Of a stretch of DNA of 64,000 bases, positions 54,914 through 56,041 are shown piece after piece. A program made the position numbers and the translations under genes. Source of the stretch: Escherichia coli (GTDB taxonomy: Bacteria; Pseudomonadota; Gammaproteobacteria; Enterobacterales; Enterobacteriaceae). A model generated the notes under the pieces. It was given only the letters and a program-made list of their open reading frames with translations. It was not told the origin of the DNA and searched no databases. The number at the start of each line of letters is the position of its first letter. Position 1 is the first letter of the stretch. The stretch lies in NCBI RefSeq assembly GCF_003334335.1, contig NZ_QOWQ01000010.1, one strand, 5' to 3'.

Positions 54914-56041
54914 TTAACGGCGTCTATAGCCTTCCTCTAGCACCGCCTGTGTTCGAACGAGTTCATCTGCGAGTCGTTTCTCATCAGGTAGTTGCATCTT
55001 ATATTCGCTTGCCAGAACGGTGTTAGGCAAACCTGCCAGAGCATAATGCGCTTCTCCGGCTCCTTTCTCTGCACAGAGAACCAGACCGATGGGCGGATTT
55101 TCATCCGGTAGCGTCCAGTGCTCTTTGGCGTAGTTGAGATACATATTCATCTGTCCGGCATCGCTATAGCTGAATTTGCCCACTTTTAGATCGACGATTA
55201 GCAGGCAGCGTAAACGGCGGTGGAAAAACAGCAGATCGACACGAAACCAGTTGTCATCAATGCGTAACCTTCGCTGCCGACCAACAAAGGCAAAATCATC
55301 CCCAAGTTCCAGCATGAAATCCATCAGGTGGTTGATCAGCGCCTCCTCAAAATCGGATTCTGAATATTCATCTTTCAATTCCAGAAATTCGAGCACAAAG
55401 GGATCGCGTATCGCCTGTTGCGGAAGAATATGCGTCTCGGCAGGAGCGTGTTGTTGCAGCATGGCTGATTTGTCATGTGACAGTAGTGTCCGCTCATAAA
55501 ACTGGGTCGCAATTTGCCGCTCTAGCTGGCGAACAGACCAGCCACAGCGGAGCGTCTCTTTTTCATAAAAGCTGCGGGCGTCAGCGTTTTTAACGGAAAG
55601 TAAACGGACGTAGGTGGACCTGGGCAAGGGGAAAGATTTGGCAGACAGCGTCTGCCAAATCTTTGCCGATGGGAATTCTGCAGACGGTGTCTGCGGAATT
55701 CCCAATGGTGTTAATTCGCCAGACATTGTCTGGCGAATTTCAACATGTTGAAAAAAGAGGTAAAAAAGCCTCATTTGGCGTAAGTTTTTTGCAGAGAACC
55801 CACGCTTATACCTTAGACATAAATCCTTTGATAGTCGCTTGATTAGCTGCGCACCATACGCAGCCCTGGCCTCGCCACCTTGTTCAAATTCGACAATTCG
55901 TCGGCCAATTTCCTGGTACGTCGCGGTCATTAACGCGTTAACGCTACGTACCGTTTCCGTCCGGGCGCTATCGACCAGATGAATAATACCGTCGTGGATT
56001 TGCTGGTAGCCTGCTGTGGTTCCTTCTGAGAGCGATTCCAT
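54914..56041 (-). CDS. yhcG: DUF1016 family protein with predicted C-terminal PD-(D/E)XK nuclease-like domain
   Basis: 375-aa ORF; N-terminal YhcG_N-like region, central low-complexity segment encoded by hairpin repeats, C-terminal region with acidic/Lys motifs (IVDLKVGKF) compatible with restriction-endonuclease-like fold. Confidence 0.85.
   Translation of the reverse strand: MESLSEGTTAGYQQIHDGIIHLVDSARTETVRSVNALMTATYQEIGRRIVEFEQGGEARAAYGAQLIKRLSKDLCLRYKRGFSAKNLRQMRLFYLFFQHVEIRQTMSGELTPLGIPQTPSAEFPSAKIWQTLSAKSFPLPRSTYVRLLSVKNADARSFYEKETLRCGWSVRQLERQIATQFYERTLLSHDKSAMLQQHAPAETHILPQQAIRDPFVLEFLELKDEYSESDFEEALINHLMDFMLELGDDFAFVGRQRRLRIDDNWFRVDLLFFHRRLRCLLIVDLKVGKFSYSDAGQMNMYLNYAKEHWTLPDENPPIGLVLCAEKGAGEAHYALAGLPNTVLASEYKMQLPDEKRLADELVRTQAVLEEGYRRR
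55632..55739. repeat. three tandem hairpin units (39-bp period) lying in-frame inside yhcG
   Basis: Directly seen: AAAGATTTGGCAGAC-AGC-GTCTGCCAAATCTTT (15-bp perfect stem), GGGAATTCTGCAGAC-GGT-GTCTGCGGAATTCCC (1 mismatch), AATTCGCCAGAC-ATT-GTCTGGCGAATT (perfect). Confidence 0.85.

Follow-up and report, generated by a model that had tools for sequence, protein, structure and literature searches.

A conserved palindrome within the Escherichia coli yhcG gene and its possible relationship to the PD-(D/E)XK nuclease that the gene is predicted to encode

The function of yhcG in Escherichia coli K-12 has long been unknown, and members of its family are frequent in defence islands, prophages, and conjugative elements. 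The locus raises the question of what a predicted nuclease acts upon when its own gene contains hairpin-forming repeats, and whether those repeats are part of the answer. We have analyzed a 64,000-nucleotide stretch of E. coli DNA (RefSeq assembly GCF_003334335.1, contig NZ_QOWQ01000010.1; hereafter the window) in which yhcG is an ATG-started open reading frame (ORF) of 375 amino acids on the minus strand, 100% identical to the annotated E. coli yhcG, a 'PDDEXK nuclease domain-containing protein'. An initial annotation made from the sequence alone had assigned this ORF to the YhcG/DUF1016 family, as is borne out by that identity and by Pfam matches to DUF1016_N and YhcG_C, and had correctly placed hairpin repeats within it, of which there are three (at 55636, 55675, and 55714). 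It treated the hairpins as an incidental detail, however, and this part of its reading did not hold: they are the most informative feature of the locus, and point to a recombination- or structure-specific role over a simple restriction-like one.

The repeats are copies of a palindrome with the consensus ATT-N3-CAGAC-RSY-GTCTG-N3-AAT, and there are five of them in the window. A covariance model run over the full 64 kb with its filters off recovers exactly these five copies, and the core pattern is expected by chance only 0.02 times. The lone other match to the model (13738-13766, 12.9 bits, E 0.81) is most likely a chance occurrence. Three copies are arranged in tandem and in frame within yhcG, spaced 39 nt (13 codons) apart and each encoding I-x-Q-T-x-S-x-(E/K), and two are extragenic, one of which (copy 5) the initial annotation had missed. 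The gene, the palindromes, and the segment encoded by the tandem copies are as follows.

54914-56041, minus strand: yhcG coding sequence (375 amino acids), identified as an ORF, by identity to annotated yhcG, and by Pfam DUF1016_N and YhcG_C.
54874-54898, no strand assigned: palindrome copy 1, ATTCTGCAGAC ACT GTCTGCAGAAT, extragenic, between the convergent nanQ and yhcG genes, 15 nt past the yhcG stop codon.
55636-55660, no strand assigned: palindrome copy 2, ATTTGGCAGAC AGC GTCTGCCAAAT; the gene strand encodes I-W-Q-T-L-S-A-K.
55675-55699, no strand assigned: palindrome copy 3, ATTCTGCAGAC GGT GTCTGCGGAAT; encodes I-P-Q-T-P-S-A-E.
55714-55738, no strand assigned: palindrome copy 4, ATTCGCCAGAC ATT GTCTGGCGAAT; encodes I-R-Q-T-M-S-G-E.
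62013-62037, no strand assigned: palindrome copy 5, ATTCGCCAGAC ACA GTCTGGCGAAT, extragenic, 15 nt past the gltD stop codon.
55631-55741, minus strand: linker (residues 101-137) encoded by the three tandem palindromes; the sole low-confidence segment of the AlphaFold model.

The differences between copies are paired changes that preserve the stem (TGG/CCA, CYG/CRG, and CGC/GCG). Folded as single-stranded DNA, each copy has a predicted energy of -11 to -16 kcal/mol with z-scores of about -6 to -8, the hairpin formed by copy 2 reaching -15.8 kcal/mol (z -8.2). Copy 1 is in frame with yhcG beyond its stop codon, where it gives FQRFRILQTVSAES, similar to the FQRIEILQTLSAEF found internally in other alleles; one yhcG allele reads through into this position. 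A role as an intrinsic transcription terminator was considered and rejected, none of the five copies being called in a terminator scan and their tails not being T-rich. Among E. coli genomes there are one to six places matching the element (median three), all confined to this locus.

At the protein level the tandem copies encode a linker between two sets of helices (residues 6-96 and 124-187) that form the halves of the N-terminal domain in the AlphaFold model, with pLDDT values of just 51-59 over residues 101-130. E. coli alleles vary in length (349, 362, 375, and 382 amino acids) and differ mainly in the number of 13-residue units. As modeled, the linker has the appearance of a permissive loop in which a DNA element is accommodated.

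The palindrome is not peculiar to E. coli. We retrieved 80 loci of YhcG relatives, with 37-93% identity, using peptide patterns lying outside of the hairpin region; the search used an alignment of 13 sequences, an alignment of 48 being too diverse. These loci are from the Proteobacteria, Acidobacteria, Verrucomicrobia, Planctomycetes, Bacteroidetes, Cyanobacteria, and several archaeal phyla, and the covariance model identifies the element at the homologous linker position in all except one of them, with one to four copies in each. The core CAGAC-N3-GTCTG is at the same gene position in many phyla, the reading frame is identical in 76 of 77 in-ORF copies, and minimal single-copy forms abut a conserved LSWSHY motif. 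Hairpins with a stem of at least 9 bp and a 3-nt loop are present at 0.91 per kb in the ORFs of the 80 loci, compared with 0.12 per kb in 640 kb of flanking DNA, and the ORF copies are nearly all in the linker. Two full-length DUF1016 paralogues were seen as neighbours in two cases: a tandem pair in a Woesearchaeota metagenome-assembled genome (L070, 2834-3829 and 4980-5975) has a palindrome in both genes, and a divergent pair on a metagenomic contig (L168, 4901-5878 and 6144-7139) has one strong match and one weak one (18 bits, E 0.02).

Several lines of evidence show that the pairing of the two arms is preserved. Among 56 distinct instances 95.9% of cells are paired, nine of the 11 stem pairs have changes on both sides, and the covariation score is 0.525, compared with 0.117 after shuffling and no more than 0.12 when partners are slid. 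This set was chosen for pairing, and we therefore added tests that are independent of that selection. The best perfect stem within a fixed linker window has a mean length of 9.3 bp, as opposed to 4.3 and 3.9 bp in two control windows of the same genes, and resampling of synonymous codons with each gene's codon usage reduces the linker stem to a mean of 4.3 bp. In 48 instances picked only by the peptide [ILVM]xQTxS, the serine is encoded by TCT in every case (18% background), the glutamine by CAG in 47, and the threonine always by ACA or ACG; at the 3' positions not fixed by the peptide 87% of cells pair.

Swaps involving both arms also occur and rewrite the peptide, with GAGAC/GTCTC giving ISETxSRK and GAATC/GATTC giving ISESxIRK; GCGAC/GTCGC and TCGAC/GTCGA are found as well. 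Because the arms change jointly and rewrite the 'QTxS' peptide, it is base pairing that is conserved, and the peptide follows. Sequence is conserved in addition to pairing, in the ATT/AAT and CAGAC/GTCTG blocks and in the R-S-Y loop. From these comparisons the palindrome is under selection at the nucleotide level, not for its peptide, and is near-universal in this clade of the family. We found no mention of an in-gene palindrome in published descriptions of YhcG, DUF1016, COG4804, or PDC-S02, coverage of that literature being incomplete; the palindrome is the new part, the nuclease prediction and the PDC-S02 listing (see below) being already known.

The same instances bear on whether the element acts as DNA or as RNA. 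Mismatches of the G:T type number eight against 15 of the A:C type in the anchored set, and eight against 14 in the other set, and the sense-strand G:U excess expected of an RNA structure was looked for in both without being found. The loop conforms to R-S-Y in 80, 79, and 81 of 82 instances at its three positions, and since this consensus is its own reverse complement the entire element is dyad-symmetric; pairing between loop positions 1 and 3 is not above the expectation for independent positions in these 82 loops. The R-S-Y consensus is also present in non-coding orphan copies in metagenomes, and Rfam 15 gives no match up to E = 1 in the region 54000-57000. Because there is no wobble excess, the loop is dyad-symmetric, orphans have the same consensus, and there is neither an Rfam match nor a terminator, we favour a DNA element, forming a hairpin on either strand or a cruciform, rather than an mRNA structure. 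We also considered, and set aside, binding of a symmetric dimer to a duplex operator, which would not require the N3 triplets to be complementary, particularly as these differ between tandem copies in one gene.

The second line of evidence is structural variation. Palindrome copies are located where insertion/deletion and replacement polymorphisms end in E. coli, and also at a patch of the gene that is both hyper-variable and variable in copy number. The first of these polymorphisms involves the following segment.

54899-62012, no strand assigned: 7.1-kb segment containing yhcG, yhcF, yhcE, yhcD, yhcA, and gltF, bracketed by palindrome copy 1 on the nanQ side and copy 5 on the gltD side.

The corresponding site is empty in 946 E. 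coli genomes, in which the gap between nanQ and gltD is just 67 nt and contains a single perfect palindrome. Alignments of the empty site to the two K-12 junctions share only the palindrome and switch exactly there, with homology on the gltD side starting at the first base of copy 5. The pattern is thus of a segment whose ends are marked by hairpins and an empty locus with one such site; no recombinase was identified, and either an insertion or a deletion is possible. One E. coli genome has a copy of ISApl1 in the empty nanQ-gltD site beside the single palindrome (L121, 4160-5282).

A second polymorphism is found in E. coli B and related strains, where the DNA from the nanQ stop codon to the outer edge of copy 2 is replaced by approximately 470 bp of unrelated DNA, and homology resumes at the first base of the palindrome. 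This replacement (L082, 3156-3627; also in strain GF43, L081) removes the 3' two-thirds of yhcG as well as the extragenic hairpin. The replacement DNA encodes a 101-residue protein labelled 'transposase' (WP_000639208.1), which has no Pfam or NCBIfam match and is uninformative as a clue to mechanism. The fimbrial cluster and gltF are also missing from E. coli B, and GF43 retains fimbrial-type genes beside its yhcG remnant.

The third is within the gene. In full-length alleles of E. coli and its close relatives, residues 1-82 and 171-375 are mostly 94-100% identical to K-12 (86-91% in the Pseudocitrobacter-like alleles), and the 19 residues preceding the hairpins (83-101) share only 47-53% identity in eight alleles and 68% in a ninth, from Pseudocitrobacter. 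The alleles that diverge at residues 83-101 also carry a different hairpin array. There are one, two, or three hairpin copies among E. coli alleles, and the hairpins of single-copy alleles are chimeras whose left and right arms come from different copies. Viral contigs contain repeated DUF1016 fragments in which the shared sequence starts a few bases before a hairpin.

Copies outside of the gene are not confined to E. coli. An extra copy accompanies the gene in about seven of the 80 loci, immediately downstream of it or else upstream at a distance of 50-460 nt or 2.2 kb. In a scan of viral contigs the exact pattern occurs 41 times, with 23 occurrences inside DUF1016 ORFs and several others in fragments of DUF1016 genes, and metagenomes gave at least 135 matches, of which, among the matches listed, 91 are in DUF1016 ORFs, four are near one, and 40 have no DUF1016 gene in the retrieved stretch. 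All three N3 pairs are complementary in 21 of these 40 listed orphans, compared with a chance expectation of 1 in 64, and about half of them are in no ORF of 100 amino acids or more, their own frame being mostly interrupted by stop codons. A 12.5-kb viral contig that lacks a DUF1016 gene has two abutting family palindromes (L088, 9938-9985) 16 nt upstream of a large serine integrase gene and beside a repressor-like gene, where an attP site is expected. Short DUF1016-like fragments downstream of some prophage copies were considered as att-like duplications and rejected, as they have no palindrome.

What, then, is the protein? YhcG has two domains, both recognized by Pfam, and the second contains the predicted active site.

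55490-55987, minus strand: DUF1016_N domain (residues 19-184), all helical and split in two by the hairpin-encoded linker (Pfam; AlphaFold).
54962-55420, minus strand: YhcG_C PD-(D/E)XK nuclease domain (residues 208-360), from Pfam, conservation in 96 sequences, and structural similarity to NucS/EndoMS.
55307-55309, minus strand: catalytic codon E245.
55235-55237, minus strand: catalytic codon D269.
55190-55192, minus strand: catalytic codon D284.
55184-55186, minus strand: catalytic codon K286.

The N-terminal match is to PF17761 (E 1.3e-36) and the C-terminal one to PF06250 (E 1.6e-56), the latter covering model positions 1-155 of 157. In an alignment of 96 relatives E245, D269, D284-L-K286, and Q297xxxY301 are invariant or at least 90% conserved. 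A QxxxY motif following the catalytic lysine defines the RecB-like branch of PD-(D/E)XK enzymes, and it is present here as Q297-M-N-M-Y301 with both residues at least 90% conserved. An AlphaFold model built on the 96-sequence alignment has a mean pLDDT of 85.4 and supersedes an earlier run on 15 close homologues that was unusable (pLDDT 49); it predicts a restriction-endonuclease-like alpha/beta core for the C-terminal domain, whose top structural match is NucS/EndoMS, with AF1548, N.BspD6I, Can2, FokI, XisH, McrC, and Shedu as further solved neighbours. A structure search with the helical N-terminal domain found no match. NCBIfam and PDB sequence searches with YhcG returned nothing useful, and the PHROG that it matches has no assigned function.

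The model and the conserved residues suggest that yhcG encodes a NucS-like PD-(D/E)XK endonuclease with an intact predicted active site. The restriction-endonuclease-like fold of the C-terminal half in the initial annotation is thus supported by Pfam, by the catalytic residues E245, D269, and D284-x-K286, and by structure prediction, and the nuclease prediction holds; it has been in print since 2005, when Kosinski and colleagues predicted the YhcG family to be PD-(D/E)XK enzymes with an E-D-E(I/L/V)K motif and linked it to DUF91/NucS (PMC1189080). The residues E245, D269, and D284-L-K286 match that motif. A literature search found no biochemical reports of YhcG nuclease activity.

The best explanation that we can offer for these observations, held tentatively and at somewhat less than even confidence, is that the YhcG nuclease binds or cleaves the palindrome as its cognate site and that breakage there drives recombination. 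The 25-27 bp perfect palindrome, in frame within a disordered linker, would extrude as a hairpin or cruciform, on which YhcG would act as a structure-plus-sequence-specific enzyme. Breakage would then provoke recombination, with gain or loss of flanking cassettes, changes in repeat number, and in-frame exchange of gene modules, and the gene and its site together would constitute a self-associated nuclease-plus-site module, closer to a RAYT/REP or homing system than to a stand-alone restriction enzyme. Recombination at the palindrome would explain the presence or absence of the island, the change in copy number, the divergent patch beside the hairpins, and the hairpin-bounded fragments. A broader form of this proposal is possible although rather doubtful: that DUF1016/YhcG nucleases and their 25-bp palindromes are an unrecognised and ancient nuclease-plus-site module of Bacteria and Archaea, with the cognate site in the gene and at orphan positions and cleavage driving cassette gain and loss, as a PD-(D/E)XK counterpart of REP/RAYT or homing systems.

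A number of observations weigh against a YhcG-palindrome partnership. The link between the two is by association only, and palindromes are intrinsically fragile and recombinogenic, such that breakpoints there could be passive. The single palindrome stays perfect in the 946 E. coli genomes that have no yhcG, and approximately 30% of the listed metagenomic instances have no DUF1016 gene within several kb; maintenance of the palindrome is therefore not obviously dependent on the nuclease in cis. E. coli copies are at one locus only (one to six places per genome), unlike dispersed REP elements, and flanking extragenic copies are limited to the seven or so of the 80 loci noted above. The gltD-side junction in E. 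coli B is not at a palindrome, and inverted N- and C-terminal gene halves, as would result from hairpin-mediated inversion, were found in none of 249 loci.

The rival that survives best, though we consider it unlikely, is that yhcG is a stand-alone or accessory nuclease directed against phages or mobile elements, with the palindromes being regulatory or hitch-hiking; it is compatible with a nuclease that acts at the palindrome. Candidacy of YhcG for phage defence, raised in the initial annotation, is already catalogued, as the family is covered by the PADLOC candidate system PDC-S02, and the match to PDLC04807 (E 2.8e-131) extends over residues 9-370. The family is large, with 21,241 clusters at 50% identity, and its members are found beside Type I and Type IIG restriction-modification (R-M) genes and inversion targets and in Tn7 cargo, prophages, and conjugative elements. 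DUF1016 genes are enriched beside programmed-inversion targets and are present in Type I and Type II R-M loci (PMC9881135), and, within Tn7 cargo, COG4804 has been classed as a restriction component (PMC8649781). One hairpin-bearing relative (L125, 2683-11248) is between a PLD/SNF2 helicase gene and an Eco57I-type methylase-endonuclease gene that is followed by a TIR-domain gene, a context that is a defence island, unlike the K-12 locus. The yhcG gene is itself accessory, being near full length in 3346 of 5426 E. coli genomes, and restriction enzymes, McrC, Can2, and Shedu are among its structural neighbours.

Nonetheless, our literature search found no family member with a demonstrated defence phenotype, and a PDC-S02 representative, a cold-seep gene introduced into E. 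coli B, gave no protection against T7, T5, or T4 (bioRxiv 10.1101/2024.09.26.614923). K-12 yhcG also has no partner gene: as the initial annotation had observed, no methyltransferase, helicase, or ATPase gene adjoins it in the window, and there is no cognate methyltransferase of a Type II R-M system within 8 kb, its neighbours being nanQ and yhcF. Moreover, a defence role leaves unexplained an in-gene palindrome that is conserved at the nucleotide level across domains of life.

It is quite improbable, in our estimation, that YhcG instead serves the host in DNA repair or in processing replication intermediates, with branched DNA or fork hairpins as its substrate and the palindromes of its own gene unrelated to that substrate. 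Its closest fold is that of NucS/EndoMS, a branched-DNA and mismatch endonuclease, and deletion of yhcG is synthetically lethal with hypomorphic alleles of dnaB, dnaN, and parE (PMC2672614), which would both be in keeping with such a role; the lethality also counts in favour of a nuclease acting at the palindrome. That genetic interaction, however, is from a high-throughput screen, and the gene is missing or truncated in more than one third of E. coli genomes and is in a variable island, unlike a core repair function. The conserved palindrome is also unaccounted for.

Still less can be said for action of the hairpins in the yhcG mRNA, where they might serve to slow translation, be cut by an RNase, or provide an autoregulatory operator that limits the level of a toxic nuclease. 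The three-hairpin stretch does fold strongly as RNA (-67.6 kcal/mol, z -11.6), and its copies are in a transcribed and translated region and always in the same frame; set against this are the lack of a G:U excess over A:C mismatches, the dyad-symmetric loop consensus, the presence of the element outside genes at non-coding orphan sites, the lack of an Rfam match, and a position 100 codons into the ORF that would be unusual for an operator. We give an equally slim chance to the palindrome being a miniature insertion, selfish or renewing itself by mutation, whose symmetry is maintained through template switching and which is tolerated in frame in a permissive loop without serving the gene. This reading would fit the disordered and length-variable linker, the rapid copy-number change and chimeric copies, the orphan copies, the in-frame palindromic elements reported in Rickettsia genes, and the ability of quasi-palindrome correction to keep arms complementary, but would not readily account for the single homologous position and frame shared by 79 of 80 relatives, which range from Archaea to Proteobacteria (including the minimal forms abutting LSWSHY), for the conservation of ATT/AAT, CAGAC/GTCTG, and the R-S-Y loop as sequence and not as pairing alone, or for the restriction of copies to yhcG (three) and the island ends (two) in the 64-kb window and to one to six places in E. 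coli genomes.

Comparison with known systems is instructive. YhcG is the namesake of its own family (PF17761 plus PF06250; COG4804; PDC-S02), which it matches in domains, catalytic motif, and predicted fold. Similarity to NucS/EndoMS, the archaeal and actinobacterial mismatch and branched-DNA endonuclease (PDB 2vld and 5gke), is at only 13-19% identity over about 125 residues, and the N-terminal domain of NucS/EndoMS is unrelated to that of YhcG, which is all helical. With REP/RAYT systems (REPtrons) the locus shares a nuclease-type gene associated with short, palindromic, co-varying hairpin repeats and flanking and intergenic orphan copies. RAYTs are HUH/Y1 enzymes, however, and by Pfam the yhcG product is of the PD-(D/E)XK type; REPs lie outside genes and are scattered in tens to hundreds of copies, whereas yhcG palindromes are mainly in frame in the gene and occupy no more than six places at one locus in E. 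coli.

Like the ends of IS200/IS605 elements and integron attC sites, in which short palindromes act as folded DNA to define the ends of mobile segments, the E. coli island has two palindromes and the empty site has one. The yhcG locus differs in having no HUH transposase or integron integrase and in the sequence and geometry of its palindrome, with an 11-13 bp stem, a 3-nt loop, and full dyad symmetry; mobility of the island is putative. Rickettsia palindromic elements provide a precedent for in-frame palindromic DNA that is tolerated in a protein and encodes a surface or disordered segment. Those elements are 100-150 bp long and invade many unrelated genes in one genus, whereas the yhcG palindrome is 25 bp long and is found in one gene family, in Bacteria and Archaea, at one position and in one frame. 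The likeness to homing endonucleases and to recombination-promoting PD-(D/E)XK nucleases (Rpn/YhgA-like) is in concept only, namely that a nuclease gene spreads or is rearranged in connection with a particular DNA site and with recombination induced by breaks. The yhcG site is inside an intact gene and is not disrupted by it, no intron or intein is involved, and YhcG is in a different Pfam family from Rpn.

The surroundings of yhcG in the window include further points of note. The gene converges with nanQ (yhcH), which closes the nanATEKQ sialic-acid operon and has an ORF ending at 54854, confirming the arrangement in the initial annotation, and the genes beyond yhcG are in the order yhcF, yhcE, yhcD, yhcA, gltF, and gltD. 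A stationary-phase transcript, G0-10703, is reported to be divergent from yhcG and to overlap its 5' untranslated region by 128 bp (PMC7967276), in the region 56042-56225. The yhcE gene is an intact 183-residue ORF (56939-57490) here, but IS5 interrupts it in the K-12 derivative that served for annotation (L123, 10240-11984); the window is thus not identical to that strain in this region. RefSeq labels both gltF (60729-61493) and yhcF (56226-56942) as DUF1120 domain proteins, and the two genes flank a chaperone-usher pair; because of this common label, gltF looks like part of a fimbrial-type cluster rather than of glutamate synthase. Along with the island, it is absent from many E. coli genomes.

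Whichever account of its function proves correct, it is an unusual constraint for a DNA palindrome to be preserved by compensatory change within a coding sequence in organisms ranging from Archaea to E. coli, and the palindrome provides a concrete candidate substrate with which the function of the family can be tested. The palindrome is also a strong nucleotide-level marker for the family, and is likely to cause breaks in assemblies and truncation of gene calls within it. Numerous database entries representing the family are fragments starting at YhcG residues 130-152, just past the hairpin-encoded linker (P0124, P0127, P0129, P0130, P0135, P0138, P0143, and others), and many PADLOC PDC-S02 profiles span only residues ~10-105; the palindromes may break assemblies and gene calls in such cases, or may mark real truncations. 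If the nuclease and the palindrome do cooperate, a gene would be carrying its own recombination site in a manner that is new, and the structural-variation hot spot in the nanQ-gltD interval of E. coli would be explained.

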